A stretch of 64,000 bases of DNA from a virus. Under the pieces are notes generated by a model. That model made no database searches and was not told the DNA's origin. It saw only the letters and a program-made list of their open reading frames with translations. The stretch is taken from positions 1 through 64,000 of IMG/VR virus record IMGVR_UViG_3300043598_000012; one strand, 5' to 3'. Shown here one piece after another: positions 18,341 through 56,415 of this stretch; the stretch's first letter is position 1, and each line of letters begins with the position of its first letter. Both the position numbers and the translations under genes were made by a program.

Positions 18341-18401
18341 GGTAGCAGATTTTTTCTACGAATCACGTGCCTTCTGTTGGCGTCTGTGCTAAGATGCTCG
18401 T
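18341..18401 (+). promoter_or_regulatory. class I promoter, copy 1
   Basis: GGTAG18341, CACGTGC18364, TAAGAT18390, ATG18402. Confidence 0.8.
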
Positions 18402-18704
18402 ATGACCACCACTAACGAGTGCCTCCACGGAGGCTACCACCAGCCAGGGCAGTGCCCGGAGGCCAATGTCTTCGAGCGAGAGGCCTTCTACGACGAGCTC
18501 TACGAGCGGCAGGTGATGTCGGTCCTCGACCATGCCGAGACCATCGACGATTCCCGCACGCTCGCCGACCTGGACTTCGAGCCCCGCACCGTTGAGATCT
18601 GTCCAGACTGTGGCTCTGGTCACACCACTGAGTCTCGCATCTGGCGTGATGGCGAGCCGACCAACTTCTGCTGCACCGAATGCGGAGCGAGGTGGACGCT
18701 GTGA
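18402..18704 (+). CDS. zinc-ribbon hypothetical protein
   Basis: CPDCGS...CTECG..W; leaderless start. Confidence 0.65.
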   Translation: MTTTNECLHGGYHQPGQCPEANVFEREAFYDELYERQVMSVLDHAETIDDSRTLADLDFEPRTVEICPDCGSGHTTESRIWRDGEPTNFCCTECGARWTL

Positions 18705-19111
18705 ACATCATCGACAAGCTCGCAGAGCAGGGCATCGATCGAGAGCGGTTGGAGCGGGTGATGAAGCCCAAGGCAGAGAACTGGGGTCACCTCGTCTATG
18801 CCTTCGAAGTGGTCACTGTGTTGGGAACGGTCCTCGACGCCATGCAAGAGGAGGTTCGCTGGCCTGACGTTGCTGACGAGCTCTATGACGCTCTTCAAGA
18901 CGCTGCTGATGACAACAGCAATTGGTTGGAGCGTACCTACAGAGAGATCGAGGTCGCTTACTCCCGAGCATCTGTTGATGCTCTCAGCAAGATCTTCAAG
19001 CACTTGCGTGACCTTGATCAGCGTGGCCGCGATGAGGTGACTCGGGACGGTTGCCGTCGGGCCATGGCCATAGTCGAGCGACTTCGATCTGCAACGGCAG
19101 CGGGCAGTTAG
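18701..19111 (+). CDS. hypothetical protein
   Basis: GTGA coupling. Confidence 0.55.
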   Translation: MNIIDKLAEQGIDRERLERVMKPKAENWGHLVYAFEVVTVLGTVLDAMQEEVRWPDVADELYDALQDAADDNSNWLERTYREIEVAYSRASVDALSKIFKHLRDLDQRGRDEVTRDGCRRAMAIVERLRSATAAGS

Positions 19112-19184
19112 CATCTGTGCGCAGCTCAACCAGCTCAGCCAAGATGAACCAGCACACCACCAACCATGTAGAAGCAGGAGACCG

Positions 19185-19640
19185 ATGACCCCCACTGCAA
19201 CCCCCATCTCTGTCGACGACCAATGGGCAGCCGCCCAGCGGGAGTTCGGTAAGAAGGTGAAGACCTTCGCCCGCAATAGTGCCTATGCCGTACCCGGCTA
19301 CGACGAGGTGGACATGGAGCAAGAGCTCCTCGTCGTGCTGTGGGAATGCGTGGTGAACTACGACCCCGGCAAGGGAGCTCGGTTCAACACCTACTTCCAG
19401 ACCTCCGCCAAGAACCGTATCGTGAGCCTGATCCGGCGGTTCCAGGCTCTGAGCCGCACGGCTGAAGTAGCATCTCTAGACGTAGAGGCTGTGTCGCTAG
19501 CGGTGGACGAGGTGTTCGCCAAGGGCTACTCCGCTGAGGACACCGCGCTGTTGCGCATGGAAGTGCGTGAGGCAGTAGCCACCCACGGAGAGGCATCCCT
19601 TGAGGGACGACGAGGACGGAAGCCGAAGCGGGTCGCCTAG
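19185..19640 (+). CDS. sigma-70 family factor, region 2 only
   Basis: DMEQE....LWE....YDP.KG.RFNTY......NRI; no region-4 HTH in 151 aa. Confidence 0.75.
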   Translation: MTPTATPISVDDQWAAAQREFGKKVKTFARNSAYAVPGYDEVDMEQELLVVLWECVVNYDPGKGARFNTYFQTSAKNRIVSLIRRFQALSRTAEVASLDVEAVSLAVDEVFAKGYSAEDTALLRMEVREAVATHGEASLEGRRGRKPKRVA

Positions 19641-19862
19641 CTCTAGGCAGGTAGACCACCTGGCCAACCCTCGTGCCGCTAGGTTCCTCGACTCGCTGGC
19701 TGCCCACCCGTTCCTCTGCATCGTCGTAGAGGGCGATAGGGTCAAGCTCTACGAGAAGGACATGGCGCCGGAGGCTCTAGAGGACCTCCTCACGGCTCTG
19801 GAGCGTACCATACCAGAGCGAGCTGCTGACCTAGGCAGCGAAATGCCCGGAGGAGGCAGTTA

Positions 19863-20636
19863 GTGGGTCTCACTGCTAAGACGTTTAAGGGACTTGACAA
19901 GAAGCGCATGAAGAAGCGGTCAGGTGGTGGCGGGGACCGCGTCAAGGTGGAGGACGACAAGCCCAATACCGTGCAGTTCTACGTCGCTCCTGACGAGTTC
20001 GAGGAGTTCGAGCAGCACGGGTGGCAGAGCGGCGGCAACTGGAATTTCGTCCCCTGCGCAGGCGAGGGTTGCCCGCTGTGCACCAATGAGGATGAGAAGA
20101 TCCGTAAAACGAGCTACCGCTTCTGTGCGCCGGTCTTCGACCACAAGCAGAAGAAGAGTCTCATCCTCGAAGGTCCGCAGACGATGGCGAGCATCATCTT
20201 CCGGCGCTACGAGGCTTGCGAGCGTCGGCGGGCGGGCTCGTTCCTCCGCAAGGTTTGGGATGTCACTCGGTTCAGCGGGACTCCCACTACCTTCGATTGC
20301 GAGGAGAGCGAGAGCACGGCCAAGAACCCCAACGGGTTGCCGGAGCGGCTCGACCCCGCCAAGTACATCCAGGCTCAGATGGACCGCTACTACGAGAACG
20401 CCTCGGCGGACGTGTCAGCCCTGGATGATAACTTCGATGGCGACAGCTTCGAGGAAGACGAGGATTGGCTGGACCTCGACGAGGAAGGTGAAGAGGCCTG
20501 GGACAAGGAGTCCCTCCTGGCCCTGAAGCCGTCTGAGCTCAAGGACGCCGCCGCCGAGTTCAACATCAAGGTGCGCGAGGTCACTCGGGAGAACCGACCC
20601 AAGCTCATCGCAGCCATCCTGCGCAAGCAGGGCTAG
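19863..20636 (+). CDS. gp32-like single-stranded DNA-binding protein with C-terminal Rho-N-like domain
   Basis: H...C.G..CP.C zinc site; acidic tract; position in replication block. Confidence 0.7.
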   Translation: MGLTAKTFKGLDKKRMKKRSGGGGDRVKVEDDKPNTVQFYVAPDEFEEFEQHGWQSGGNWNFVPCAGEGCPLCTNEDEKIRKTSYRFCAPVFDHKQKKSLILEGPQTMASIIFRRYEACERRRAGSFLRKVWDVTRFSGTPTTFDCEESESTAKNPNGLPERLDPAKYIQAQMDRYYENASADVSALDDNFDGDSFEEDEDWLDLDEEGEEAWDKESLLALKPSELKDAAAEFNIKVREVTRENRPKLIAAILRKQG

Positions 20637-20676
20637 TCCAACCCCAAGCAAAACCAACAACAAGGAGACCACACAC

Positions 20677-21204
20677 GTGGGAAGCAGCAAGATCAAGAAG
20701 GCACTCACGGCGCTGGAGGAGGCGCTCGGTGAAGCGGGGTTGGACTCTGTCCACGTCTCGCTCCAGATCCCGATCGGCTCCGGAGGCGTCTCGGAGGACG
20801 ACCTCGACGACGGCGAAGAGGCCGTCGACGACGAGGACTGGGAGGAGGGTGGCGAAGAGGAAGAGGGCGAAGGCGAGCCCTACACTCGCGACGAGCTTGA
20901 CGCCATGGAGACCAGCGACGTGCAGGCCATCTACAAGGAGCTCGTCGGTCCCCTGAAGCCTCGTACTCGCAAGAACACCCTCGTCACCGAGATCCTGGAG
21001 GCGCAGGAGGCTGGCGACGAGGAAGAGGGCGAGGAGGCTGGTGACGACGACTGGGACGACGAGGTCGTTGACGAGGAGGCTGAGCCCGAGGAGGAGGCCG
21101 AAGACGGCTGGGACGACGACTGGGATGACGAGCCGGAGCCCGCTCCCACCAAGCGTCCCGCCAAGAAGGCTGCTCCGGTCAAGAAGGCGGCGAAGCGCCG
21201 ATGA
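20677..21204 (+). CDS. very acidic protein with Rho-N-like domain and basic tail
   Basis: D/E-rich; ELDAM...VQAIYKEL......RKNTLVTEILEAQ; PAKKAAPVKKAAKRR. Confidence 0.65.
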   Translation: MGSSKIKKALTALEEALGEAGLDSVHVSLQIPIGSGGVSEDDLDDGEEAVDDEDWEEGGEEEEGEGEPYTRDELDAMETSDVQAIYKELVGPLKPRTRKNTLVTEILEAQEAGDEEEGEEAGDDDWDDEVVDEEAEPEEEAEDGWDDDWDDEPEPAPTKRPAKKAAPVKKAAKRR

Positions 21205-21562: not shown

Positions 21563-22159
21563 ATGCGCATGAAGAAGGGGTCCCTCGTCGTTGTGGAGGG
21601 GCTCGACTCAACAGGAAAGACGACGCTCGTGGACGCTCTAGCAGAGCACGTCCACGGCATCACGGCGGTGCACTCGCCCAGCGGTGGCGGTGAATTGGGC
21701 CAGGAGATCTACGAGCTCACCGAGCGGCCCAGGCCAATGGAGGGGCTTACTCGTCAGTTCTTACATCTTGCGGCCCACGTTGAGATTTACCAGAACACAG
21801 TAATCCCTGCCCTCTCGCAGAGCGCGGTCGTGATGGACAGGAACTGGTGTTCTACTTACGCCTACGGGATCGCAGGAGGCGTGCTGAAGAGCACCCCCAT
21901 CTTCTCAGCCGATTGGTATGACACCGTGCAGTACCCTGCTCAGGGACAGGTGCCAGATCTCGTCGTGCTCTGCTTGGAGCCTCATCGAGACGACCGCCAC
22001 AACACGCCGGAGCTCGAAGCTGCGTACCTTGATCTCAAGCGGAGGCTCGACAAGGACCCCGCTCTCAAGCACGTCCGGATCATGCCCAAGCTCAGCAAGC
22101 GGGCACAGCTCATCGCTTTGATGCAGATGTGCCAGGAAGCCAACCTCACAAGGAGCTAG
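21563..22159 (+). CDS. tmk: thymidylate (dNMP) kinase
   Basis: VEGLDSTGKTT, MDR...STYAYG, PDL. Confidence 0.9.
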   Translation: MRMKKGSLVVVEGLDSTGKTTLVDALAEHVHGITAVHSPSGGGELGQEIYELTERPRPMEGLTRQFLHLAAHVEIYQNTVIPALSQSAVVMDRNWCSTYAYGIAGGVLKSTPIFSADWYDTVQYPAQGQVPDLVVLCLEPHRDDRHNTPELEAAYLDLKRRLDKDPALKHVRIMPKLSKRAQLIALMQMCQEANLTRS

Positions 22160-22161
22160 CG

Positions 22162-23268
22162 ATGCACGAGTTCGTAGGCGAGGTCAATGAGGTGTACCCC
22201 GCCATGCTGCAAGCGGTGTTCAAGTTCGGCGAGCGTGTGCCGTCGAGAGTCGCCCCCACCATCGAGCTGCACCCCCTCGTGGCCGAGTTCGAGAACCCTC
22301 GTCGGCGTCTCGTCACCTCGTACGGCAGGGCAGTCAACGTGCCGTTCATGCTGGCTGAGGTGGTGCACATCCTCAACGGGCGAGAAGACCTCGCCTTCCT
22401 CGACCAGTTCAACAGCCAGGTCAAGGAGTACAGCGACGACGGTGTGCGCTTCAATGCTGCCTACGGACACCGGCTCCGTCACGCACACGGCTACGACCAG
22501 GTCAGGGATGTCATCAAGCTCCTCAAGCGGGACCGGGGTACCCGTCAGGCGACGCTCACGATCTGGCACCCAGACGACCGCCATCACGAGCTTGTGCACG
22601 TCGAGTCGCACAACGGCGGTGTCGGTGATGGATGGAGCAAGGAAGAACCTCGCCAGGTCAAGGACCGGGCCTGCAACCTGCTCGCCCACCTGATGATCCG
22701 GGATGGTGTGCTCAACTGGATGCAGGTCATGCGGAGCAATGACGCCATCTGGGGGCTCCCCTACAACCTCATGCAATGGACCTACCTCATGGAGTACATC
22801 GCCAACGAGGTGGGCGTGGAGCTCGGCGTCTACCGGCATATCGCCGACAGTTTCCACATCTACGACTACCACGAGGACGAGGCAAGCAAGGTCGCGCCCT
22901 TCGACCTCTACGAGCATCAGGGCCTGCGCTCTCGTTCGCATGCTCCGATGATCGCTGACGAATCTGCGTTGGAAGCAGCGGTCGAGCTCGCCAACCATGG
23001 TTGGAGCAGCGTTCATCACCCCGGCAACGTTCCTCAGTGGGTGATCGACTTTGGCCAGATCTGGTCAAGCTGGCGCTCCTATAAGGAGCTCGACGATGCC
23101 GGAGCCCAGCATCAACTGACACGCGCCAACGATCAGATCTTCGCAGCGGCGACTTATCGCTTCTACTGGTCCAACCGCTGGCACAAGCAGGACCCCGGTC
23201 ATCCGCGCCCAGACACCGTCAGAGCCGCATGGGGTTCGACCATCGGTGACTGGATCATGGCGTCATGA
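22162..23268 (+). CDS. thymidylate-synthase homologue, probable dUMP hydroxymethylase
   Basis: YSDDG...AYG.R, DQ, TRQA, catalytic C in DRACN, MRSND..WGLPYN, SFHIY. Confidence 0.85.
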   Translation: MHEFVGEVNEVYPAMLQAVFKFGERVPSRVAPTIELHPLVAEFENPRRRLVTSYGRAVNVPFMLAEVVHILNGREDLAFLDQFNSQVKEYSDDGVRFNAAYGHRLRHAHGYDQVRDVIKLLKRDRGTRQATLTIWHPDDRHHELVHVESHNGGVGDGWSKEEPRQVKDRACNLLAHLMIRDGVLNWMQVMRSNDAIWGLPYNLMQWTYLMEYIANEVGVELGVYRHIADSFHIYDYHEDEASKVAPFDLYEHQGLRSRSHAPMIADESALEAAVELANHGWSSVHHPGNVPQWVIDFGQIWSSWRSYKELDDAGAQHQLTRANDQIFAAATYRFYWSNRWHKQDPGHPRPDTVRAAWGSTIGDWIMAS

Positions 23269-23435
23269 CCACACTGCTTCAGATGCCTGTCGAGAAGTAC
23301 ATGGACGAGCGGGCGTTCGAGTTCGAGCAACTCGCCGCTCACGCCAAGACCAACCCGCTCGACCTACGGGTGGCGCTCTCCAACGTCTTCGTCTCTATGG
23401 CCCGCCAGGGTCACATGCGTACCCTCAAGAGGTGA
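23265..23435 (+). CDS. small hypothetical protein (56 aa)
   Basis: Hand-translated; ATGA coupling. Confidence 0.5.
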   Translation: MTTLLQMPVEKYMDERAFEFEQLAAHAKTNPLDLRVALSNVFVSMARQGHMRTLKR

Positions 23436-23469
23436 CTCGCCTAGTACACTAGAGGCTACAATGGTCCGT

Positions 23470-24009
23470 ATGGACCACGTCTCGATCTACGCCCTTTGCG
23501 ACCCTGGCGGAGAGATCCGTTATGTAGGAAAGACGATGCAGCCGGTGAGCAACCGACTATCCATGCACGTCGCTGAAGCCAAGAACCCTCGATACCAGTG
23601 TCACAGACTCAACTGGATTCGATCTCTGTTGGATCAGGGAGCTCGCCCGGAAGCTGTGCTGCTGATGAAGGTGCCTGTCGCAGAGTGGGAGCTCTGGGAG
23701 TGCACCTAGATTGCTGTGTTGCGGGAGGCAGGCTACCGCCTGGTTAACAACACAGACGGTGGGGACGGGCGTGTAGGCCCATTGAGCGAAGAGACGCGCC
23801 GCAAGATCGGCGAGGCCCATCGGGGGAAGCCGGTCAACCAGCCTGGCGTACCTTTGAAGGTGACGCACCGAGCGGCCATCAGCCGGTCGCTGGCAGGGAA
23901 CCAACGAGGCAAAGGGAACCGTGGCAAGAAGCTCAGTGAAGAGCACAAGCGGAAGATCGGCGAGGCGCGACGCCGAGCCTACGAGCGCCAGAGGGCAGAA
24001 GCCAGGTGA
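23470..24009 (+). pseudogene. GIY-YIG/NUMOD3 homing endonuclease with in-frame amber stop
   Basis: IYAL.DP...IRYVGKT...RL..H; TAG at 23707-23709; frame continues as LVNNTDGGDG and two SEE..RKIGEA repeats. Confidence 0.8.
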
Positions 24010-27000
24010 TGCAGCGAAGGCGAAGGGCTCCAGGCTCGTTCACCTTCATTAGCTACGTGCACACCGATTATTCGTCACTAGACGGACTCGGTACCGTGCC
24101 TGAGTACGTCGAGAGGGCCAAGGCGGACGGCCAGGAGGCCCTGGCGATCACGGACCACGGCAACCTCTGTGGGCTCCCGGAGTTCTACAAGGAGTGCCGC
24201 AAGGCGGACATTGAACCAATCCTTGGTGAGGAGTTCTACTTCACCATCGACGCTGAACGCCACCGGCTAGAGACCAAGGGCAAGTCCACCAAGCACGAGG
24301 AAATGGCGGAGGCCGAGAGCGAGGGCCTGGGCCGCTACCACGTCGTGATCCTCGCCCGTGGGCAGCGAGGCTACGAGACGCTCTGCGAGCTCTCGACAGC
24401 CACGCACCACAACTTCTACGGCAAGCCGCTCCTCGACCGCAACATCGTCAACGAGCTCTCCGACAAGGACCGGGACAGCCTCGTGTGCCTCTCGGGCTGT
24501 GCGACCTCTGTGATCTCGAGAGCGGTGCTAGCAGGCGACATGCAAGGTGCTGCCCGACACCTCATCTGGTGGCGTGAGATGTTCCCGCACTTCTACATCG
24601 AGCTTCAGCACCACGACACCGACTTCGATCGAGAGATCAACCGAGGGCTCTTGCGGCTCGCCAAGCGGTACGAGGTGCCCATCGTCGTCACCAACGACCC
24701 GCACTACGCCGTGCCAGAGGACCATGAGCATCATGACGCGCTGCTTGCCATCCAGACGGCCAGCGACATCGACGACCCCGAACGTTTCGCCTTCTCCGGC
24801 TCCGGCTACCACCTCCGTACCGAGCGGGAGATGCGGGAGGCCTTCTCTCGCTATGGGTCTGAGGTCTGGAAGCCAGGCATCCTCAACACGCAGGTGGTGG
24901 CTAAGCTTTGCCACACCAGGATCAAGGACTGGGAGAGCAAGACCTGGCACATCCCCAAGTTCCCTGACGTTGAAGACAGCCAAGCCTTCCTCCAGAAGTT
25001 GACCATCAAGGGGCTCAAGGAGCTGGGTCGGTTCAGCGACAGAGAGTACGTCAAGCGCGCCAAGTACGAGCTGGGCGTCTTCGAGGAGGTGGGCATAGCC
25101 GACTTCCTACTCATCACCTGGGACATCATCGAGGAGGCCAGGCGGCTTGGCATCGGTGTAGGTCCTGGGCGAGGCTCCGTGTGTGGAACCCTCGTTGGCC
25201 AGACCATCCGTCTCCACAAGATCGATCCGATCAAGTACGAGCTGCGGTTCGACCGCTTCTTGAACCCCGCTCGCCCAAAGATGCCCGACATCGACACCGA
25301 CTTCAGCCAGGAGCGGCGGGAGGAGCTCTTCCCCTACATCATCAGGAAGTACGGCGCCGAGAACGTGGTGACTGTCTGCGCCTACCAGACGCTGAGGCTC
25401 AAGAGCGCCTTCCAGTCCATGGCCCGAGCCTACGGCATCGAGTGGAACGAGCGGCAGAAGCTGACTAAGCTCCTCGCCAACGACGACGAGAACAGCATCG
25501 ACCTCCTGCCCGACGAGCTCCGTGAGGCACACCCCGAACTGGCTTCACGCATGCTTCGGCTCTCGGGCACCAAGAAGGGTGTCAGCCAGCACCCAGCCGG
25601 AGTGATCATTGCTGACCCCAAGGATCGTATTGCCAAGATGGTCCCAGAGATGTGGATCGCCTCCAGCAAGCGGATGGTTGGCCAGTACGATCTCTTGGCA
25701 GCAGAGGCAATGCACCTGCTCAAGCAGGACCTACTTGGGCTCCGCACGATCGACACCATCGAGCACAGCGTCGATCTCATCGAGCAGAGCACAGGTGAGG
25801 TGCTAGATCCTGACTCGTGGGTGCCAGACGACGAGCCAGGTGACGACAAGGTCTGGGAGATGCTGGCGGAGGGTCGCACAGGTGGCGTGTTCCAGATGGA
25901 GGGACCGGCCAACCAGCAGGGTTGTCGAGAGGTGCAGCCCAATTGCTTTGAAGACGTGGTGAGCATCACCGCGCTCTACCGCACCGGCGCCATGTCGGCG
26001 GGCTTTCCCAAGGTGTTCAATGAGAACCGCCGTAAAGGCACCATCGACTTCATCCACCCTGACCTAGAGCCTATCCTGGGCCACACCTCTGGCGTGGTGC
26101 TCTACCAGGAGCAGGTCATGGACATGGGGGAGTTCCTCGCTGGGTTCGACATGGTACAGGTAGACGATATCAAGGACGCCATCAAGAAGAAGGATCCCAA
26201 GGTCTTCGCCATCATCTCTCCCCTGTTCATCAGGGGTTGCATGGAGCACAGCGGGATGAGTGAGTCGGTAGCCAAGGAGATCTGGCGTTACATCGAGGGC
26301 TATGCGGGGTATGGCTACAACCGGTCGCATGCCGTGGCCTACACCATGCTGACCTACCAGACAGCTCGACTCAAGGCTCTTTACCCCCTAGAGTTCCTCA
26401 CAGCTCTGCTCCGCACGGTCAAGGGCTCCTCCAAGGAGGCCAAGGCCAAGCGAGAGGGCTACATGAGGGAGCTCATGGAGTACGGCTACACGATGCTGAC
26501 TCCTTGCATCAACCGCTCTGACGAGCTCGCCACACCAGACGTCGAGCACGAGGGTGTCAGGTTTGGACTCTCAGACATCGCTGGCGTAGGTCACAAGGCC
26601 GCCAGCAAGATCGTTGATGGGCGCCCCGAGGGAGGCTACACGTCGGTCAAGACGCTGATGGCGGTGGCCAACAACACCGGCACCATGGACCACCTGCACG
26701 ACGCCTGTGCCCTGGAGGTGCTCGGGGCTCCAGGAGACCTTAACGTAGCAGAAGAGAAGCTCAACTGGCAGTTCGTCGACCGCATGGCAACTTACCGAGA
26801 GAAGTACGCGCTCAAGGTGCGGTTGCCCGTCGAGAACAAGAACGACAAGTGCCTGATCATCGGGGAGATCCGCAAGATCACTCGGGGCACTACCAAGGGC
26901 AACAAGCCATACGTCACCTGGCACCTTCAGTGGGACATCACGCACACGTACGATATCCGTCTGTGGAGCGGGACCGACTCGCTCTGGAAGCTCAACGAGG

Positions 27001-31161: not shown

Positions 31162-31163
31162 CC

Positions 31164-47178: not shown

Positions 47179-47193
47179 TCGCGTATGGATGAG

Positions 47194-47274: not shown

Positions 47275-47279
47275 TCGGT

Positions 47280-47684: not shown

Positions 47685-47749
47685 GGTAGAAGGGTCTTTC
47701 CAGAAACTTTCAGAAATCACGTGCGTTCTGGTTACGGCTGGGGTATAGT
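47685..47749 (+). promoter_or_regulatory. class I promoter, copy 3 (10-bp internal duplication)
   Basis: GGTAG47685, CACGTGCG47718, TATAGT47744. Confidence 0.8.
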
Positions 47750-47800
47750 CACTTCAGACCGCTTCACCGAGGAGCGGACCCAGCACCAAGGAGTACCACC

Positions 47801-48082
47801 ATGTTCATGTCCGCCAAGGCCATCAAGCGGTTCGAGGATCTCTACGAGGTGTCCCCCAAGGACGTCAAGGGCCTCAAGTTCCTCTCCATCTCCCGCTCCA
47901 CCGGCACCCTCGTCGCCACGTACGACGGCACCAAGATCGACGTCGGCCAGACCGCTGACGACTTCCGTTGGGTGACCGTCGACGAGGACAAGGGCATCCT
48001 CACCACCCACGAGTCCCTCTCGGACGCTCGCTACGCAGCCAGCTTCCCCGAGCTCTGGGCCGACGAGTCCGTCGCTGCCTGA
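47801..48082 (+). CDS. hypothetical protein
   Basis: AAGGAG RBS; strong codon bias. Confidence 0.7.
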   Translation: MFMSAKAIKRFEDLYEVSPKDVKGLKFLSISRSTGTLVATYDGTKIDVGQTADDFRWVTVDEDKGILTTHESLSDARYAASFPELWADESVAA

Positions 48083-48105
48083 CCCCCTCAACGTACACTA
48101 GATCT

Positions 48106-48273
48106 GGTAGGGGCTCCGGCCCCTGTTCTAGGAGAGGGGGTGAGGCCGATGCGGGCAAGCGTCGCCAAAGCGACATCGGATGCGCACCGATTGCCCTAGC
48201 AATTCAACCACACAATGATGCGCAACGACACTTGTCTGGTTACGGTAGGTAGGCCTCTTTCCGGAGGCCTACC
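48106..48273 (+). ncRNA. candidate structured sRNA 2
   Basis: CG-TACACT48094-N6-G; 3-way junction; two TGCGCA loops; 3' hairpin GGTAGGCCTC/GAGGCCTACC. Confidence 0.6.
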
Positions 48274-48431
48274 GCCGCGTTTGGGCTTTGTTCGTGCTTC
48301 TTGGGGCGAGCTCGGCGTATACTCTTGGTGAAGCGGTTGGTGGTACTTCTGCTTCCGCTCCCCGCGAGCGTTGCTGGTCATCGAGTTGGAGCCCTTGCTA
48401 CGGCGAGGGCTTCGCTCGTGTTGCGTACAAG

Positions 48432-48890
48432 TCAAGCGGCTCTCAGGTATGCAGCAGCTCGCTCTAGCACGGCAGGGTCGTCGTTCGCAGCGGGCAGCAG
48501 GCTGCTGTTGCAGCGATGACAGAGGAGACCCCGCACTCTACCGGTCTTGTGGCAGTGATCGACATGCAAGGTACCCCATCTGCCCGAAGGCTTCTTCCGG
48601 CAGATGGCACAGCGTCCTCTTTGTTTCTTGAGCATGGCCTCGTACTCAATGAGAGTGATGCCGTACTTGCTCATCAGGAAGGTTTCTTTGTTGCGACGCT
48701 TCACAGCTGCAAGTCGCTTGGGGTCCTCCTTGATGGCATGCCAGCGAGCCTTTGCTGCTTCTGGAGAGTCAACCACGGAGCATCGGTAGCCGCCAGACCT
48801 ATGTCTGACCTTCACAGGCCCACACTGAGCACATCTTGCTGTCATCGCTTCTGGATCTATATCGCTCAGCCTGTGTAGGTGTTTGCCCAT
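48432..48890 (-). CDS. endonuclease VII-family HNH homing endonuclease
   Basis: KYGIT, Q.GRCAIC, HVDHCHKTGRVRGLLC..CN. Confidence 0.88.
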   Translation of the reverse strand: MGKHLHRLSDIDPEAMTARCAQCGPVKVRHRSGGYRCSVVDSPEAAKARWHAIKEDPKRLAAVKRRNKETFLMSKYGITLIEYEAMLKKQRGRCAICRKKPSGRWGTLHVDHCHKTGRVRGLLCHRCNSSLLPAANDDPAVLERAAAYLRAA

Positions 48891-48936
48891 AGAGGACGAT
48901 CATACCGCAAATGGCTTGTGCGTAAGATACTAGCCT

Positions 48937-49356
48937 ATGACCAAGCGAACCAAGCAGGACGAGTGGCCTCCTCTCTGGGCCATCTGGGGGCTCAGGAAGG
49001 GCTGGCACCCTCTGGAAGCTGGAGCATGGCATCCCCTGTTCCACTACAAGTCAGAGGCTGGAGCCAGGCGAGGAGAGCGGCTCGTGATCGAAGCTCAGGC
49101 TCATGAGAAGCACCTGCTGAGCCTCACACGAGGAGTCCGCGGTAGGCACGGTGCAGGCATCCAGGGCTACGTCCGCTTCAAGGCGGTGAGGCCAGGGTCC
49201 ACGCCAGTCAACCCGGCCAAGGTGCGCCCCACGAGGCGCCGTAAGAGCTGCCTCCGCTGCCACCACTCGATGCCGGTGAAGCGTTGGCGCATGCTCCGGC
49301 AGTGCTCCGAGTGTGGGTGGGTGCCCAAGCCCTACCGTCGAGCGCGAGCTGCATAG
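48937..49356 (+). CDS. basic zinc-ribbon protein
   Basis: CLRC...CSECGW. Confidence 0.5.
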   Translation: MTKRTKQDEWPPLWAIWGLRKGWHPLEAGAWHPLFHYKSEAGARRGERLVIEAQAHEKHLLSLTRGVRGRHGAGIQGYVRFKAVRPGSTPVNPAKVRPTRRRKSCLRCHHSMPVKRWRMLRQCSECGWVPKPYRRARAA

Positions 49357-49361
49357 TCCCA

Positions 49362-49422
49362 GGTAGCAATGTTCTTTCCACAAGCACGTGCGGAGCTTGA
49401 AGGGATGTGTAAAGATAGCGTC
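49362..49422 (+). promoter_or_regulatory. class I promoter, copy 4
   Basis: GGTAG49362, CACGTGCG49385, AAAGAT49411, ATG49423. Confidence 0.75.
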
Positions 49423-49665
49423 ATGGACACCAACGATCGTCGCCAAGGACCCCGTCGGGCATCCGAGCAGAGGGCACACCTCGCTCGGGAGCTCATCCTG
49501 GAGCAGGCACGAGCTCTCGTCAGCATAAACCGCCGACCGGCCACCACGTTGGTCGAGCAGAGCGAGCAGGCAGTCGACATGCGTCGCAAGGTGGCCGACC
49601 TGGGCACCCTGATCGACACGCTCGACGAGGCAGAAGAGCTTGTCAAGCAGGAGCGAGTCAAGTGA
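49423..49665 (+). CDS. hypothetical protein
   Basis: Leaderless start; GTGA coupling to the next gene. Confidence 0.55.
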   Translation: MDTNDRRQGPRRASEQRAHLARELILEQARALVSINRRPATTLVEQSEQAVDMRRKVADLGTLIDTLDEAEELVKQERVK

Positions 49666-51023
49666 GCGAGTTCGTCGGCAACGACCCCATGATGAAGCAC
49701 CTCGTGGAAGGCACCTTGCCTGCCGTCCTCTCCGAGGACGACCAGCTCATCGCAGGACGAGGCAAGACCTCCGGCGACAAGCTGGAAGCGATGCTCCGCA
49801 AGGTGAGGGCTCTCCTCACTCAAGCGGAGGACCCCGGAGCCACCCCGCAGGAGGCTCAGATCTTCCGCAACAAGGCGGAGGCTCTCATGCTCCGCTACCG
49901 GATCGACGAGGCCATGCTGGCCGACGCTCCGGACACCGGTCTCATGCCTCAGTGGAACACGATCATCGTGTGTGAGAAGAGCCAGTACCGCTCCTTCTAC
50001 GAGGGCATTGCCAAGAAGGTCGTCGAGCACGTTGGTGCTCGGGGCGAGATCAAGCGCACCTGGGATGACCGTGGACACTACATCGTCGAGCTGCACTACG
50101 TTGGGTTCCCCAGCGACATCCGGCTTGTCGACATGCTGTACACCACAGCACAGGTGGCCTTCAACACCAAGCTGGAGCCCAAGTACAACCCGGAGCTCTC
50201 CGACCAGGAGAACGCCTACAACATGCGCCATGCGGGCATGGAGGGTTGGCGCATCGCCATGGCCATCTGGGGGACACGAGGCAACAGTGTGTGCTGCGAC
50301 AAGCGGAGCCACTGGAGGCAGTGCGAGCCGTGCGGCCAGGGCCACCATGACCAGTGCGCCATCCCGGAGGTCAACGACGCCAACCTGTACAAGGCACGTC
50401 GGCTCTTCAAGAAGGAGGCCTTGGAGCGCGGGGAGGATCCGTCCTCATTGCTCGGCCAAGGCAACTCGATGCAGGTGTACCGGGACAGCTACGCCAATGG
50501 CTTCTACTGGGAGCTGTTGCGGCGCCTCCGGGAGATGCAGGACAGCCGTGGCTCCGAGTCCGTCGGCATTGAGCTCGGCGGACGTAGGGAGAAGATCGAC
50601 CAAGCCTTCTACCGTGAGTACCCGCAGTACGCTCCAGCCAAGGCAGCCATTGGTTACGTGGCTCCGGAGGGTGAAGCAGACATCGACGAGGAGGAGGCTG
50701 ACAAGGAGCTCCGTTGCCCGTGGGATGGCTGTGGCGAGGTCGTCGAGGCAGGAGACGACCCGTGTCCGCACTGCGGGCTCCCCATTGATTGGGCAGCCAA
50801 GCTGGACCGCAACCACGGTCGAGGCACCTATCAGGACCCCCGAGAGGGCTGTGAGAAGTGCCAGCGGGCCAAGAGCGGCTACTGCCGAGACCACTCGTAC
50901 CTCCGGCCCAGCACGGCTCAGTACCGAGAGCGTGCCCACAGCCCAGCGGGGGAGCGTGCCGGTCGTGCAGCGGCTCGCAGCGTGGACCTTGGGCGAGGAC
51001 CACGAGGCAGGTTGGGCTCGTAG
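49662..51023 (+). CDS. DUF2786-domain protein with inserted zinc fingers
   Basis: KVRALL..AE......EA.....KA..LM..Y.ID; C-terminal G..AGR.AA..VDLG. Confidence 0.8.
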   Translation: MSEFVGNDPMMKHLVEGTLPAVLSEDDQLIAGRGKTSGDKLEAMLRKVRALLTQAEDPGATPQEAQIFRNKAEALMLRYRIDEAMLADAPDTGLMPQWNTIIVCEKSQYRSFYEGIAKKVVEHVGARGEIKRTWDDRGHYIVELHYVGFPSDIRLVDMLYTTAQVAFNTKLEPKYNPELSDQENAYNMRHAGMEGWRIAMAIWGTRGNSVCCDKRSHWRQCEPCGQGHHDQCAIPEVNDANLYKARRLFKKEALERGEDPSSLLGQGNSMQVYRDSYANGFYWELLRRLREMQDSRGSESVGIELGGRREKIDQAFYREYPQYAPAKAAIGYVAPEGEADIDEEEADKELRCPWDGCGEVVEAGDDPCPHCGLPIDWAAKLDRNHGRGTYQDPREGCEKCQRAKSGYCRDHSYLRPSTAQYRERAHSPAGERAGRAAARSVDLGRGPRGRLGS

Positions 51024-51028
51024 TCCCA

Positions 51029-51089
51029 GGTAGAGAGGTTATTTCCAGAATCACGTGCGAAGTTGGAAAGCCTGAGGTAAGATGCTCTC
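51029..51089 (+). promoter_or_regulatory. class I promoter, copy 5
   Basis: GGTAG51029, CACGTGCG51052, TAAGAT51078, ATG51090. Confidence 0.85.
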
Positions 51090-51344
51090 ATGACCACCAC
51101 CGCCTTCCCAACCACGGTCCTCCGCTCCGAGTGGGGCACCTCGTACCACACGAGCTCTGCCTTCGAGGGCTGCAACCTCAGCGTCAAGCGGCTCGTCGAT
51201 GAGCCCAACGAGCACGGAGGCGTTGGCAACACCCATCGCCATCCCATCTACGACGGCATCCACTTCCCCACGAGCGATGCGGCTCGCTTCTTCGCTCTCC
51301 TCGTCGGCCTCGTCCGGCCCTACACCTACTGGGGTGCCAAGTGA
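51090..51344 (+). CDS. hypothetical protein
   Basis: Leaderless start. Confidence 0.6.
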   Translation: MTTTAFPTTVLRSEWGTSYHTSSAFEGCNLSVKRLVDEPNEHGGVGNTHRHPIYDGIHFPTSDAARFFALLVGLVRPYTYWGAK

Positions 51345-51628
51345 CCAGCACGACCACCTACGACGCAGACCTCGCTGCTGCGGGCATCAAGCTCCTCTCC
51401 AAGAAGGATCGGGAGCACCTCCACCCCCGAGCCCAGGTCCAGAAGCTCCGCAGGATCGCTGTCCGGGCCACCAACAAGGCCGACTGGAACGGGGAGCTCG
51501 CCGCACAGTACCCCGGTGACGAGATGTACGCCACCGATCCGGAGGAGCAGACCAAGCTGCGGCTCAAGGCACGCCAGGCCACGGAGGCCATGTGCCTCCT
51601 CAACGCCGAGCACGGGCTGGGCTACTGA
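51341..51628 (+). CDS. hypothetical protein
   Basis: GTGA coupling. Confidence 0.55.
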   Translation: MTSTTTYDADLAAAGIKLLSKKDREHLHPRAQVQKLRRIAVRATNKADWNGELAAQYPGDEMYATDPEEQTKLRLKARQATEAMCLLNAEHGLGY

Positions 51629-51794
51629 TGGCCAGCAAGGACAAGCGAGGCACTCAGGGTGGACCTTGGGCTGTGCTCGGATACGACGGACAGGTCCTTG
51701 AAGGCCGCTGGCCTACCGAGCTGATGGCCGTGGAAGAGGGCTTGTGTGGGCGCTACCTGCTCACCGGCCTGGAGGTCAAGGAGGTGGGCGGGGC

Positions 51795-52823
51795 ATGAGC
51801 AAGCTCGTCTACAAGAGCTGGAAGCCCCAAGCGGAGGCCATCCGCACGGTGGAACTCGCCAACCGCATCTGCGCCGAGTACGCGGCCGACGGGTACGACC
51901 TCACGTTGCGTCAGCTCTACTACCAGTTCGTGGCGAGGGGCTACATCCCCAACAACCAGAAGTCCTACGACCGCTTGGGGAGCACCATCAACCGTGCTCG
52001 GCGAGCAGGGATGATGGACTGGAACTACATCGTCGACCGCACGAGGAGCCTCTCCGGCGCCGAGCACTTCGCCAAGCCTGGGGACAGCATCCTCAAGTCG
52101 GCTCGCAAGTACAGCGAGGACCTCTGGGCCAAACAGCCCCTCCGCATTGAGGTGTGGGTGGAGAAGGAGGCACTGGCTGGAGTCATTGAGCGAGTGTCCG
52201 GCACCAACGATGTGGACAGTTTCGCATGCAGAGGCTACGTCTCCCAGAGCGAGCTCTGGAGTGCTGGACAGCGGATCCTCAACTACATCCAGCACGGCCA
52301 GAGGGTTCTCATCCTGCACTTGGGAGACCACGACCCCTCCGGCATCGACATGACTCGGGACATGAGGGAGCGCCTTGAGCTCTTCACCGAGAGGGACTGG
52401 CACCGAGCCAACCTCGACGAGCTCGGAGCGTCCACCACGCTTGGCTCCATCCGAGACCACATGCGGGCAGCAGTCGGCTACGAGCAGCCTCTCGAGATCC
52501 GGCGGATCGCACTCAACATGGATCAGGTCGAGCAGTACGCTCCTCCGCCCAACCCGGCCAAGTTGACCGACAGCCGAGCGGAGGGCTACGTGGAGCTCTA
52601 CGGCGACGAGAGCTGGGAGCTAGACGCTCTGGAGCCGCAGGTGATCAGCGACCTCGTGCAGCGGCACATCGTGGCCGAGAGGGACGACATTGCCTGGGAC
52701 CGCGCCGTCAAGCACGAGGAGGAGAACCGTCGCAACATGGTGGCGGCTGCTGAGCGGTGGGACGACCTCGTGAACCTGCTCCCCACGCTTCCGCCGAAGG
52801 AGTCTTCCCAGGTAGAAGGGTAA
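51795..52823 (+). CDS. Topo VI-A/Spo11-like wHTH + TOPRIM protein
   Basis: TLRQLYY, EVWVEK.AL, RGY.S, LGDHDPSG, RIAL, WELDAL.P. Confidence 0.8.
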   Translation: MSKLVYKSWKPQAEAIRTVELANRICAEYAADGYDLTLRQLYYQFVARGYIPNNQKSYDRLGSTINRARRAGMMDWNYIVDRTRSLSGAEHFAKPGDSILKSARKYSEDLWAKQPLRIEVWVEKEALAGVIERVSGTNDVDSFACRGYVSQSELWSAGQRILNYIQHGQRVLILHLGDHDPSGIDMTRDMRERLELFTERDWHRANLDELGASTTLGSIRDHMRAAVGYEQPLEIRRIALNMDQVEQYAPPPNPAKLTDSRAEGYVELYGDESWELDALEPQVISDLVQRHIVAERDDIAWDRAVKHEEENRRNMVAAAERWDDLVNLLPTLPPKESSQVEG

Positions 52824-52871
52824 TTTCCAAGAACACGTGCGAATCTTCGCAGGGTGAGGCATAGTGTTGGT
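52811..52871 (+). promoter_or_regulatory. class I promoter, copy 6
   Basis: GGTAG52811, CACGTGCG52834, CATAGT52860, ATG52872. Confidence 0.85.
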
Positions 52872-53102
52872 ATGACCGCAACCACCTTCACCAACTCAGC
52901 CTTCGTTCGCAGCCACGTCAAGCAGCCACGTGGGTTCGGGCACTGGGGCTTCCAGGCCACCACCAAGGACACCGCTTTCTCTGAGGAGCTCTTCGGGCCG
53001 GTCGTTTGGGCCACTGGCACTCTCACAGAGGCCAAGACCTCTGCTGTCCAGCAACTCCGCAACCAAGGTGTCGACACCTCGCTCGTGGCGGTCCTGCCGT
53101 GA
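52872..53102 (+). CDS. hypothetical protein
   Basis: SH.KQPRG.G.W.F...GTLTEAK; leaderless start. Confidence 0.65.
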   Translation: MTATTFTNSAFVRSHVKQPRGFGHWGFQATTKDTAFSEELFGPVVWATGTLTEAKTSAVQQLRNQGVDTSLVAVLP

Positions 53103-53840
53103 GCCACCTTTCCGACCTCAGCTGGGAGGACTCCGCCAGCCTCGTCTCCTACGACGACAACCACGCCGACCTCCGAGCCGACTCACACCGCATCACGATG
53201 CAGCCAGGACCCACCTCCATCAAGCAGGACGTCGTCATCGACCTGCGGGACAGCAGCAAGGTGGACGCCTGATGGCTCGCCACAAGCACACGTGGGAGGC
53301 CACCTTGTCGAAGCCAAGGCCTGCCGATGGATGGGTGCCCTACGAGCACGTGGTCGTCACCACGGCCTGCACCTCATGCCCAGCGAACTCCAGCTCTACG
53401 AGGGCGACGTGAAGGTCGCTCCGCTGGCTCACCAGCAATCGTGGCCGCTCCGAGCCCTGTTGTGGGCTCTGTGGCTCGCTCGCGTGGCCTTCGGGGTCAC
53501 CCTGCACATGCTCCGCTCGTTGGCCACCTACGAGGCACCTCCGACTCCGAGGCAGGCTTCAGATCGCCGAGCAGCACGCCTAGTGACCCAAGAGCGAGTC
53601 GAGAGGCACAGCGCCACAGTGCGAGCCGAGCAGGACACCCTGCACCCAGGAGAGGAGCCCTTCTGATGAGAAGCAACTTCGATCCAGCTGAGGATACCGC
53701 TCCCGATGCGGGTGAGTATTGGGAGAACTATGTCGACGTCTCAGCCGAGCTCGCTGCTGCCCGAGCAGCGGTAGAGGCAGACAAGGCCAAGGAGGCAGCG
53801 CGGGTGGCTGCCTGGGAGGCAGATCGCACACGTCTTCCCT

Positions 53841-53901
53841 GGTAGGAGCGTTCTTTCCAGAAAGGCGTGCGAAGTGGAGAGCGGTGAGGCATAGTGTCCC
53901 T
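53841..53901 (+). promoter_or_regulatory. class I promoter, copy 7
   Basis: GGTAG53841, GGCGTGCG53864, CATAGT53890, ATG53902. Confidence 0.85.
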
Positions 53902-54228
53902 ATGACCACAACCACTGACACCACCACCGCATTCTACGCTTGGGGCTCCGAGCAGGAGAGCATCGACAACAAGCAGATGGCCCGCATCGTCTCCGGAGTC
54001 GACGAGGTCGTCCGCTCCGCCAAGCAGGCCATCAAGGAGCTGGAGGAGCTCGTCGCCAAGGTCACGGCCGTGGATCCGGAGGAGATGGTTCTCTCGGGCG
54101 ATCGTGCCCTGTCCGCTGTCCAGCACTTCGCACGGCATGCTGGCTACAGCAACTCACCGGCCACCTACGTCGCCGAGACCTACGCAGCCGCTGGCAAGGT
54201 GGCTGGGCAGCTGGAGATGGTCTTCTAG
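53902..54228 (+). CDS. hypothetical protein
   Basis: Leaderless start. Confidence 0.65.
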   Translation: MTTTTDTTTAFYAWGSEQESIDNKQMARIVSGVDEVVRSAKQAIKELEELVAKVTAVDPEEMVLSGDRALSAVQHFARHAGYSNSPATYVAETYAAAGKVAGQLEMVF

Positions 54229-54268
54229 CCTCCGCAGACCAACAGCAGAACTCAGGCACAACGGAGTC

Positions 54269-54295
54269 AGGCCACTCGCAAGAGTGGCCTTCTTC
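54269..54295 (+). terminator. GCAA-capped hairpin terminator
   Basis: AGGCCACTC-GCAA-GAGTGGCCT-TCTTC. Confidence 0.8.
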
Positions 54296-54431
54296 GTGTG
54301 CATAGGACCTTCTTAGCATCCGCAGAGGCCGCTTGCTACAGATCGAGGCACCTACACCTCCAGCAGGACGCTCGGGAGCCCTTAGCGGACGTTTCACCGA
54401 GCCACTCGGCACTTGAGGTAACATGGCTGGC

Positions 54432-55124
54432 ATGGGAACAACCACACGCCGAGCTCGACCTCCTGTCCCGCCGACGCGCCCTGGCAAGGGTGGCCACGGG
54501 CGCCTCAAGCAGGGAGGATCCAAGTCCGCCTCTCCGTTCAACCGTGCCGAGCGTAGGGAGAAGGGCTTCAAGCTCATCGCCAAGGGCTACACCAACGTCG
54601 AGATCGCTGCTGAGCTCAAGGTGCATCCAGACACGGTGACGAGGCTCCGCAAGGCCTACGCCGACCAGGTGCAAGCGGAGGCAGCCGCCAACCCGCACTT
54701 GCTCAACGAGGTCATTGCCAACACCATCCGGACGCTCAATGAGCTCGATCTCATCCGCAAGGAAGCATGGGCAGCACACGACACCATGCATGCAGAAGGT
54801 CGGGAGTGCTCCGAGTGCGGACATGAGGATGTCGTCTACCGAGGTCCCAAGGGCGAGACCAAGGCACAGATGCTCCGCATCCTGCTTCAAGCCAATGACC
54901 AGAAGGCGAAGCTGTTCCAGCTGTTCGGTGTCAAGGCCGAGTTCATGGCGCACGTCAACCAGGTGGCCCAGCTCCAGACACGGCTCATGGCCTTCATGCG
55001 GGACAACCTCTGCGAGGCAGACCGCAACAGGCTGGAGGACTTCCTGGGCACCCTCACCGGTGCCGTGGCCTCCAACGAGGCTCTCGCTGAGCTGGACGTG
55101 GTGGAGGCAGAGCTCGTAGGCTGA
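54432..55124 (+). CDS. HTH protein, probable terminase small subunit
   Basis: ERR...L...GYT..EIA..L.V...TV; L.ELD.....AW; KAKL..L. Confidence 0.55.
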   Translation: MGTTTRRARPPVPPTRPGKGGHGRLKQGGSKSASPFNRAERREKGFKLIAKGYTNVEIAAELKVHPDTVTRLRKAYADQVQAEAAANPHLLNEVIANTIRTLNELDLIRKEAWAAHDTMHAEGRECSECGHEDVVYRGPKGETKAQMLRILLQANDQKAKLFQLFGVKAEFMAHVNQVAQLQTRLMAFMRDNLCEADRNRLEDFLGTLTGAVASNEALAELDVVEAELVG

Positions 55125-55134
55125 CTAGTTACCA

Positions 55135-55195
55135 GGTAGAAGCGTTCTTTCACAGAACGCGTGCGTTCTTGTCACTGATCAGGCATAGTGTTGGT
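55135..55195 (+). promoter_or_regulatory. class I promoter, copy 8
   Basis: GGTAG55135, CGCGTGCG55158, CATAGT55184, ATG55196. Confidence 0.85.
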
Positions 55196-55402
55196 ATGAC
55201 CGCTTCCGAAACCACCGCAGTGCTCCACGAGCTCATCAACACAGGGTCGGCTCGCCGCCAGGGTGGAGTCAAGATCTCCACCATCGCCTCTCGGCTCGGC
55301 TGCTCCGTCAGCGAGGTCGAGTTCGACGCTGCTGTCCACCAGATCAACCACGCCACCTGCGTGGTGTCCTTCCGACCCAACTCGGCGGAGGCCTGCAAGT
55401 GA
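55196..55402 (+). CDS. small HTH-like protein
   Basis: ISTIASRLGCSVSEV; leaderless start. Confidence 0.5.
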   Translation: MTASETTAVLHELINTGSARRQGGVKISTIASRLGCSVSEVEFDAAVHQINHATCVVSFRPNSAEACK

Positions 55403-55845
55403 GCATCACCTTCACCTTCGGCACCGTCGCTGACAACGGCGCCACCAGCATCGGTCTCCTCCACGAGCACCTGTGCCCGACGCCCGACGCCTGCGAGGAC
55501 GCCCAGATGTACTCGCCTGCCTGCTGCGACCATGCCGAGGCACTCGTGGCTATGTGTGGCTGCCAGCACTTCGACGTCAACGCCTCCTCGGCCAACGCAT
55601 CTGTCATCCTCTCCCGGATGGGCATCGCAGGCCAGATGGTGGGCACCATGGACGCTGAGGACTACCTGGGCAGAGTGCTGCTGGCCCAGCTGGAGGATCC
55701 AGCGCCAGTCATGGTTGGTGGAGCTGTCGAGGCAGCCTTCGGGGTGGGCGCAGTCGAGGCCAACGCTGAGGCACACCACTGGCACCGGCTGGAGCGTCTG
55801 GCCCACGAGGCTCGGCTCTCGGGCTGGCTTGTGGCCTGGGCCTAG
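55399..55845 (+). CDS. Cys-rich hypothetical protein
   Basis: VN.S.ANA...L..MG; L..LA......V.WA. Confidence 0.6.
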   Translation: MSITFTFGTVADNGATSIGLLHEHLCPTPDACEDAQMYSPACCDHAEALVAMCGCQHFDVNASSANASVILSRMGIAGQMVGTMDAEDYLGRVLLAQLEDPAPVMVGGAVEAAFGVGAVEANAEAHHWHRLERLAHEARLSGWLVAWA

Positions 55846-55899
55846 GGGCTCGCCAGGAAACCGCGTGTCGAGGAGCTCGACATGGGGTAGAGTGGGGCC

Positions 55900-56046
55900 A
55901 TGGACATGGCACTCGCACTTCGTCGGCAGCTGGCCACCACGGCACAGCGACGGCTCGCCGAGCTCCGCATCGCTGCTCCCCACCGGGAGATCGGCTCCGC
56001 CATCGTCGACGAGCTCGACGAGGACGAGGTGCTGCGAGCCTCCTAG
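55900..56046 (+). CDS. small hypothetical protein (48 aa)
   Basis: Hand-translated; CGCGTG55862 and TAGAGT55888-N6-ATG. Confidence 0.5.
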   Translation: MDMALALRRQLATTAQRRLAELRIAAPHREIGSAIVDELDEDEVLRAS

Positions 56047-56415
56047 AGCTCCCAGCCAGGAGGTGGGCTGTCCGTCTCCTCGATGGTGAGGCCAGGCAGA
56101 TCGAGCCGGATGGCGTAGCCCCAGTCCATGTGCGCCCAGAGGAAGCCGTGCTGGTCTCTGGAGACGTGCTCTAGGACGCCAGCAGCGCCTCCTGCTTGGC
56201 CTGCCTTGCCTCGCCACTGGATGTGCACGTAGCGGCCCACCAGGCTACGAGCTCCGCCTCGACATGGATCGGGACAGCGAGACCTACATGCAGGACGTGC
56301 CGGTCTACTTCGACGAGGCTCGCCTCTACGCCACCATCGACCACCTCTCCGACGTGCGCTACGGGCTCGTCTGAGGCATAGTTCCTACGTACCACCAACC
56401 ACAAGGAGACACACC

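Follow-up and report, generated by a model that had tools for sequence, protein, structure and literature searches.

Eight repeats as probable sigma-70-type promoters for non-structural genes of an uncultured actinophage

The repeat family and its setting

The window analyzed here comprises bases 1-64000 of the 80,880-bp virus record IMGVR_UViG_3300043598_000012 and carries eight full copies of a unit that runs from a GGTAG pentamer to an ATG. All copies lie on the + strand, in intergenic gaps, and in the non-structural part of the genome. In our judgment they are probably promoters of the sigma-70 (principal sigma) type that serve non-structural genes of an uncultured actinophage.

Pfam annotation of the phage, for which 132 open reading frames (ORFs) were scanned, places terminase, portal, capsid, tail, and lysis genes from 72.6 kb across the junction of the record to about 14 kb. 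Helicase and primase genes, a 24-kb block of replication and nucleotide genes (18.4-42.7 kb), and numerous small ORFs without assignable function (43-72 kb) make up the rest. Nearly all genes are carried on the + strand, the one convincing exception being 14452-14853. The repeat family was not found in the structural and lysis regions (62-81 kb and 1-14 kb).

The copies were located by a repeat finder and subsequent reading of the individual sites. All eight copies that an earlier note on this DNA had listed were confirmed on the + strand, and a single start position had to be corrected, as the fourth copy begins at 49362 and not at 49363. The unit measures 65-75 bases. Full copies, each starting with the first base of GGTAG, and two further sites are as follows:

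P18341, 18341-18404, + strand: most divergent copy, directly after the primase stop codon; leave-one-out score 33.1 bits
P43210, 43210-43273, + strand: putatively leaderless ATG at 43271, opening a 136-aa ORF; 67.8 bits
P47685, 47685-47756, + strand: AT-rich box tandemly duplicated (+10 bp), ATG apparently lost; 34.3 bits with the core matrix
P49362, 49362-49425, + strand: -10 hexamer AAAGAT; ATG at 49423, 80-aa ORF; 42.6 bits
P51029, 51029-51092, + strand: ATG at 51090, 84-aa ORF; 66.2 bits
P52811, 52811-52874, + strand: upstream ORF reaches 13 nt into the repeat; ATG at 52872, 76-aa ORF; 63.4 bits
P53841, 53841-53904, + strand: ATG at 53902, 108-aa ORF; 60.9 bits
P55135, 55135-55198, + strand: ATG at 55196, 68-aa ORF; 58.9 bits; the sole copy with a significant upstream hairpin
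56351-56388, + strand: core-only copy; 21.3 bits, rank 9 genome-wide, against a best background score of 16.4
55862-55902, + strand: doubtful member; 7.0 bits, rank 31, within background

A leave-one-out position matrix was built from the seven insertion-free copies and run over both strands of the whole 80,880-bp genome. It assigned 33.1-67.8 bits to these copies, compared with 7.5-11.4 bits for the best site elsewhere, which sets the family clearly apart. The 8-mer CACGTGCG alone is not enriched (six matches, 3.35 expected), and its occurrence at 29893 was rejected as a family member, being a chance match within a gene.

The geometry of the unit is fixed. The CACGTG-type hexamer precedes the -10 hexamer by 26 nt in all ten sites (eight full and two partial), and GGTAG precedes the CACGTG-type hexamer by 23 nt in seven of the eight full copies and by 33 nt in P47685. 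In seven full copies the -10 hexamer is followed by 6 nt and an ATG, which continues with ACC in six of them. Each of these ATGs shares the frame of an ORF of 68-136 aa whose base composition is of the coding type. These distances had all been given correctly before. Anchored at the C of CGTG, GGTAG starts 25 nt upstream, the -10-like hexamer occupies +24 to +29, and the ATG begins at +36. When numbering instead starts with the A of the ATG as +1, which is the inferred and not a mapped start point, the unit is composed of GGTAG (-61 to -57), a TTCTTTCC-AGAA box (-51 to -40), CGTGCG (-36 to -31), TGAGG (-17 to -13), a YAnnnT -10 hexamer (-12 to -7), 6 nt, and ATG-ACC.

The earlier note had the repeats starting right at upstream stop codons. 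This holds for three of the eight copies, where stop codon and GGTAG abut (0 nt). The gap amounts to 5 nt in two copies and 10 nt in one, and in the remaining two the upstream ORF extends into the repeat, by 13 nt at P52811 and by 5 nt at P53841, provided, in the latter case, that a genuine short ORF ends at 53845. An alignment of the eight downstream proteins reveals that only the first residues, approximately MTTT, are common (23% mean column identity). As these proteins are unrelated, the conserved unit is a DNA signal rather than a duplicated gene.

Partial copies were scored with a matrix of the -35-to-(-10) segment derived from the eight full copies, and 161,698 positions were ranked. 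From the pair of partial copies previously proposed, the site at 56351 is supported by its rank of 9, and the one at 55862 is indistinguishable from background as a family member. The former is composed of GACGTGCG, an 18-nt stretch, and TGAGGCATAGT, which occurs in identical form in two full copies; it contains neither GGTAG nor the AT-rich box. The latter has a TAGAGT -10 box 6 nt ahead of the ATG at 55900 and looks like a leaderless promoter, and the CGCGTG that stands at the family distance does not exceed chance expectation. A relaxed core pattern matches 15 sites on the + strand, five of which lie beyond the list in the earlier note and in coding DNA, and one site on the - strand. In the gap before the gene of a sigma-like protein (19112-19184), TGTGCG, an 18-nt stretch, and CAAGAT occur at family spacing and are followed by an AGGAG leader. 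This site scores 8.3 bits (rank 23, within background) and may be a weak extra promoter.

Core elements and gene starts

In all ten sites, positions 2 and 6 of the -10 hexamer are A and T, respectively, whereas position 1 is T in four, C in five, and A in one. Exactly 6 nt upstream of a start, HAnnnT is found at 15 of the 125 predicted + strand starts, compared with 0-8 at 20 other offsets; across its genome, the phage favors this 6-nt geometry between -10 hexamer and start. TGAGG[TC]AnnnT occurs nine times on the + strand, seven times in promoter-like intergenic contexts, and twice on the - strand. Two predicted promoters that do not belong to the family likewise have TGAGG directly before the hexamer, namely CTTGAGG-TAACAT at 54414 and CTTGAGG-TAGGAT at 56859.

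Upstream of the -10 hexamer, at a spacer of 17-18 bp, lies the CGTGCG/GTGCGA box. Its CGTG (-36 to -33) is invariant in all eight full copies, and the complete CGTGCG is retained in seven. CGTG recurs at the same spacing in the 56351 copy, from which the upstream boxes are absent; thus, the box is tied to the -10 element and not to GGTAG. Together with that element it probably works like a -35 element. The logic of the sequence in this way supports the earlier claims that the units are promoters with a -10 element and a box at the -35 position, and, given the HAnnnT excess at 6 nt, that the ATG occupies the position of the transcript start.

With this architecture, RNA polymerase would begin transcription exactly at the start codon. 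A transcript starting 7 nt after the hexamer would begin with AUG, and translation of the resulting leaderless mRNAs would proceed with no Shine-Dalgarno site. Such a site is absent from the 6 nt that separate hexamer and ATG in the family, and these bases are unconserved. TGAGG was considered as a Shine-Dalgarno site and rejected, as it stands 12 nt from the ATG, compared with 7 nt for the GGAG of two true leaders, those of the genes at 47801 (behind P47685) and 56416 (behind the 56351 copy). In an alignment of P47685 with P55135, the former displays a degraded start, CA-GACCGCTTC against TATGACCGCTTC, in which the ATG is destroyed by a 1-nt gap. P47685 hence appears to be a copy that lost its start codon.

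Strong terminator-like hairpins are located at 21506, 47153, 48106, 48248, 48387, 54269, 56827, and 79776. Since none stands directly before any family copy, transcription probably reads through from unit to unit. Three of these hairpins (48106-48127, 48248-48273, and 48387-48414) fall into a stretch of about 430 nt without a convincing ORF (48083-48515), which has no Rfam or tRNA match; the one at 48248-48273 has an uninterrupted 9-bp stem, GGTAGGCCTC...GAGGCCTACC.

Nine further putatively leaderless sites possess a TAGRRT-like -10 element only: 14887, 14853 (- strand), 32459, 42913, 54432, 55900, 56876, 59057, and 61650. In this second promoter class the element stands 6-8 nt before the start; 48937 and 61109 possibly belong to it as well, and two sites are preceded by CTTGAGG. 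TAGRRT is the -10 consensus of Streptomyces, and the -10-only promoters of the phage fit it. Two members form a divergent pair, in which the - strand gene 14452-14853 (133 aa, no family match) faces the + strand gene 14887-15123 (78 aa) across 33 bp. Their -10 hexamers, TAGAAT and TATACT, each stand 6 nt before the ATG, and the pair looks like a regulatory switch.

The presence of a WhiB gene and the leaderless gene starts led us to infer an actinobacterial host. Gene starts of this layout are ordinary in high-GC Gram-positive hosts and usual for leaderless genes of mycobacteria. In PMC6448022, ANNNT is reported at -6 to -13 in 79% of the promoters of M. smegmatis, TANNNT is the preferred -10 element of SigA, and 24% of the transcripts are leaderless.

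Several observations weigh against the reading of the repeats as sigma-70-type promoters. A scan of 42000-58000 for the E. coli consensus returned no promoters where 2.7 were expected, because GTGCGA matches TTGACA at only three of six positions. Position 1 of the -10 hexamer deviates from T in six of the ten sites. A strict CGTGCG and 25 more conserved upstream bases exceed what a host promoter needs, and a dedicated factor may be responsible. According to PMC6448022, a conserved -35 box is absent from mycobacterial promoters. The phage encodes a sigma-like protein of its own and thus an alternative reader. A metagenome locus with a sigma-like protein 44% identical to that of the phage (L041) is devoid of the repeat family in the 20.4 kb examined of its 72.9-kb contig. 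Finally, none of the RNA runs on record contains this DNA (the two sequencing runs listed for it both come from the probable source sample). We favor the principal sigma factor of the host as the reader of the family, possibly helped by a phage factor, and keep the phage sigma as a rival.

Upstream boxes and alternative explanations

The stretch from -51 to -39 (TTCTTTCC, then AGAA) is the only AT-rich part of the unit, set in a genome background of about 60% GC. A or T occupies -51, -50, -48, -47, and -40 in all seven insertion-free copies, -46 and -39 in six, and -49 in three. Positions -61 to -52, i.e., GGTAG and the following 5 nt, are mixed and not AT-rich; GGTAG itself is invariant in all eight copies. 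The 5' edge reads CTTGAGGTAG in three copies, with CTTGAGG in these three and a YCCCAGG-like sequence in five. CTTGAGGTAG equals the extended -10 start of the promoters at 54414 and 56859, apart from position 6 of the hexamer, where T does not occur in any of the eight copies. The AT-rich box would probably act in the manner of an UP element or be bound by an accessory factor.

The earlier note had further described the upstream site as helically phased. This claim rests on P47685, a single copy, and finds no support there. The ten extra columns constitute a second tandem CTTTC(C)AGAAA box, CTTTCCAGAAA being followed by CTTTCAGAAA. The first box stands 7 nt from GGTAG (usually 8), and the second has exactly the usual spacing to CGTG; the copy also carries TGGGG in place of TGAGG. 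As the length of the insert is the size of the duplicated unit, it is uninformative on face-of-helix dependence. A factor that binds the box plus GGTAG, or the box plus the core, would still meet its native arrangement. P47685 is thus compatible with face-of-helix dependence and, as one copy, cannot demonstrate it.

Among the alternatives to plain sigma-70 promoters, activator-dependent (class I-like) promoters, with a factor or the alpha C-terminal domain bound at GGTAG (around -60) on one face of the helix, are unlikely and yet survive best. GGTAG is invariant and its distance is constant except in one copy, where it is 10 bp longer, and the -10 hexamer lacks T at position 1 in five of the eight full copies, like factor-dependent promoters. 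A loose TTC...GAA dyad centered at about -44 can be seen by eye in every copy; its arms comprise just 3-7 bp, however, and its register shifts by 1-2 nt between copies. Apart from the phasing, which stems from the one copy with a duplicated AT-rich box, it also speaks against an activator site that GGTAG is associated with promoters elsewhere only inside -10 regions (GGTAGGAT at 56861, GGTAGAGT at 55885). Candidate regulators are encoded by the phage, namely an HTH_23 protein, a WhiB-like protein, and the divergent pair 14853/14887. The gene of the HTH_23 protein (233 aa, 54423-55124) lies amid the clustered promoters and is served by a separate -10-only promoter, with a terminator hairpin upstream of it. 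The WhiB-like protein (31529-31972) has an acidic C-terminus, by which a WhiB7-like AT-hook was ruled out. The upstream boxes might also serve as an operator, and a regulator on the GGTAG side could equally be a repressor.

A second alternative, which is compatible with a promoter role, regards the units as portable promoter cassettes that spread by duplication and provide homology patches for the swapping of gene cassettes; as an account of the family we consider it improbable. The copies share bases without an obvious promoter role, since pairwise identity of the spacer is 37-83% and the first four codons are common. On account of these shared spacer bases and codons, the copies look paralogous, which suggests that they were duplicated as whole units. 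Subsets of copies share different segments, groups defined by the 3' segment cut across those defined by the 5' edge, and each unit spans the entire gap between unrelated small ORFs. Promoter-early stem-loop elements of T4-like phages (PeSLs) are likewise described as exchange points between unrelated sequences in PMC4122927. Nevertheless, a PHI-type permutation test on 49 informative columns was not significant (p = 0.119), which leaves the suggestion that the repeats act as recombination points without statistical support, and the terminator stem-loop, the defining half of a PeSL, is absent.

Third, the promoters could be read by the sigma-like protein of the phage and be of a middle or late class instead of a host-read early one, which we judge quite improbable. 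The protein is encoded as follows:

19185-19640: sigma-like protein, 151 aa, 0.8 kb downstream of P18341; Pfam Sigma70_r2, E = 1.7e-7

It also has a profile match to residues 24-141 of FliA (E = 1.2e-4). The structural model is confident for residues 10-90 (block means 89-98); beyond them it shows helices at 100-112 and 117-139 and then a disordered tail. Sigma factors make up all of the top structural matches, domain 2 superposing at 2.0-2.2 A over 72-77 residues, and none of these matches reached E <= 0.001. The protein has a basic tail, GRRGRKPKRVA, and no domain 4; its 19 homologues are all metagenomic, 142-171 aa long, and mostly retain the tail. They include proteins 91%, 84%, and 80% identical to it, encoded on contigs of 25.8, 2.6, and 68.4 kb, respectively. 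Besides the protein itself, the promoter conservation beyond the needs of a host argues for this reader, as does the placement of TGAGG where a region-3-like helix could read it. However, a protein without domain 4 leaves the conserved box at the -35 position unexplained, and such a sigma factor is expected at promoters that have no -35 box. Without domain 4, the -10-only class is at least as good a candidate target as the repeat family. In addition, P18341 at least must fire without the phage sigma, because the sigma-like gene lies 0.8 kb downstream of it. Structural and lysis genes, the usual targets of phage sigma factors, are free of the family, and L041 has the sigma and no motif in 20 kb examined. 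As a long shot, the cassettes might even be the cognate promoters of this domain-4-less sigma, the basic, AT-hook-like tail reading TTCTTTCC-AGAA and the helices reading TGAGG; if true, promoters would be recognized without sigma domain 4.

Last, the upstream half as a structured element, be it an intrinsic terminator, an RNA processing site, or a REP-like GTAG-tagged hairpin, is largely refuted and very improbable: one terminator-scan match overlaps P43210, P55135 has a 7-bp DNA hairpin directly after GGTAG (-7.2 kcal/mol, z = -2.78), and GGTAG opens the perfect hairpin at 48248-48273, whose loop includes TTTCC, yet the eight upstream regions share no RNA fold (z-scores -1.80 to +1.47), DNA folds between GGTAG and CGTGCG reach 0 to -2.1 kcal/mol in seven of eight copies and are no better than shuffles, no Rfam family matches, and no Y1 or RAYT-type transposase is found among the 132 ORFs. 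The terminator and RNA-structure candidates were rejected on the fold and Rfam results, the REP candidate on the single significant hairpin and the missing transposase.

Genome context and comparison with known systems

Among sequencing runs, the phage DNA was found in one soil-metagenome sample only. Its GC content is 54-64%, and 127 bp are repeated at both ends of the record, which looks like the assembly overlap of a circular or permuted genome. No integrase or recognizable repressor was found among the scanned ORFs. The genes next to the first copy are located by Pfam as follows:

15434-16753: DnaB helicase
17330-18340: primase

P18341 heads an operon composed of the sigma-like gene, HU, nucleotide and DNA-modification genes, and DnaE. 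The block from 18.4 to 42.7 kb altogether encodes the sigma-like protein, HU, thymidylate kinase and synthase homologues, DnaE, RecA, WhiB, two endonuclease VII proteins, an amino-acid:DNA transferase, a dCTP deaminase, a nucleotide kinase, and an SNF2 helicase. Within it (21563-40460), the thymidylate synthase homologue, the amino-acid:DNA transferase, P-loop nucleotide kinase 3, and the dCTP deaminase are genes of a thymidine-hypermodification route. Small nuclease genes at 23461-24009, 32459-33004, 40480-40956, and 56876-57211 comprise GIY-YIG and NUMOD3 pieces directly before DnaE, two endonuclease VII domains, and one HNH endonuclease; they are likely homing-type insertions, and some have a -10-only promoter of their own. 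An acidic low-complexity repeat of GAG/GAC codon runs (20452-21132) lies inside ORFs at 19863-21204, and a similar acidic repeat (11507-11838) is located downstream of the sigma-like gene in L041. Two non-coding, AT-richer stretches, 57544-58014 and 62471-62674, are candidates for an origin, a site of packaging, or a region of late control. The second contains three CATTTT repeats and AGAAATCACATGCG, a degenerate look-alike of the AGAAATCACGTGCG of the family, followed by an 8-bp hairpin.

When 50,697 phage records were searched with megablast and tblastn, no near relative emerged; the large terminase had no matches, and the best identity of DnaE was at most 34%. A motif scan of IMG/VR gave 26 single matches in unrelated contexts, none with the downstream half, and these look like chance. 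Searches via the DUF2786 protein found no motif-bearing relatives in viral contigs, and a primase-led search found only loci at 27-30% identity, which do not contain the motif. Alignment of the sigma-like protein gave no match in viral contigs, one irrelevant weak match in genome contigs, and two loci in metagenome contigs, L041 among them. TAGAAT-N6-ATG/GTG junctions are present in L041, one of which overlaps the stop codon of the preceding gene. A literature search for leaderless promoter families of actinophages yielded nothing specific, which is no proof of absence in print.

With the sigma-70 reading, the eight units provide a transcription map that is ready to use for the non-structural genome half of a phage without cultured relatives, and seven gene starts are corrected to leaderless ATGs. 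The unit of 65-75 bp is compact and a potential promoter part for use in actinobacteria. Should a phage factor read the upstream boxes, the eight copies would define its regulon.

UP elements, as in E. coli rrnB P1, are A/T-rich tracts from about -40 to -60 that bind the alpha C-terminal domains. The AT-rich box of the phage resembles them in its position and in its polarity of distal T and proximal A, but its tract is shorter and is broken by C and G. The operator repeats of phiC31 and the stoperators of Cluster A mycobacteriophages (the latter named in PMC3203893) are, like the present family, phage-specific intergenic sites in many copies, and they control transcription. Both are repressor sites of temperate phages, whereas here every repeat comes with a full promoter.

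In PMC3203893, the start-associated sequences (SAS) of Cluster K mycobacteriophages and their extended form (ESAS) are, like the present family, asymmetric repeats in one orientation that stand beside the start codons of unrelated genes in the non-structural half. SAS, a 13-bp motif (GGGATAGGAGCCC) whose core is AGGAG, is located 3-7 bp before the start codon in the position of a ribosome-binding site, and ESAS adds 17-bp inverted repeats. In contrast, the phage unit is about 65 bp long, has promoter geometry, and has no Shine-Dalgarno-like core. The PeSLs of T4-like phages, as described in PMC4122927, are also short composite regulatory repeats between small, variable, non-structural genes and are proposed exchange points. 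They combine a terminator stem-loop with an early promoter, and the phage family has no stem-loop.

In their gene starts, the units resemble leaderless SigA/HrdB promoters of actinobacteria, for which PMC6448022 describes a TANNNT-type -10 element, a start on ATG or GTG, and no Shine-Dalgarno site. The phage family differs by conserving CGTGCG and about 25 further upstream bases across eight copies, and by C in five and A in one of ten sites at position 1 of the -10 hexamer. The phage element is distinct from SigA promoters, PeSLs, SAS/ESAS, and stoperators, in each case in a defining feature. Its probable promoter cassettes are of an ordinary kind, and their upstream extension is phage-specific.

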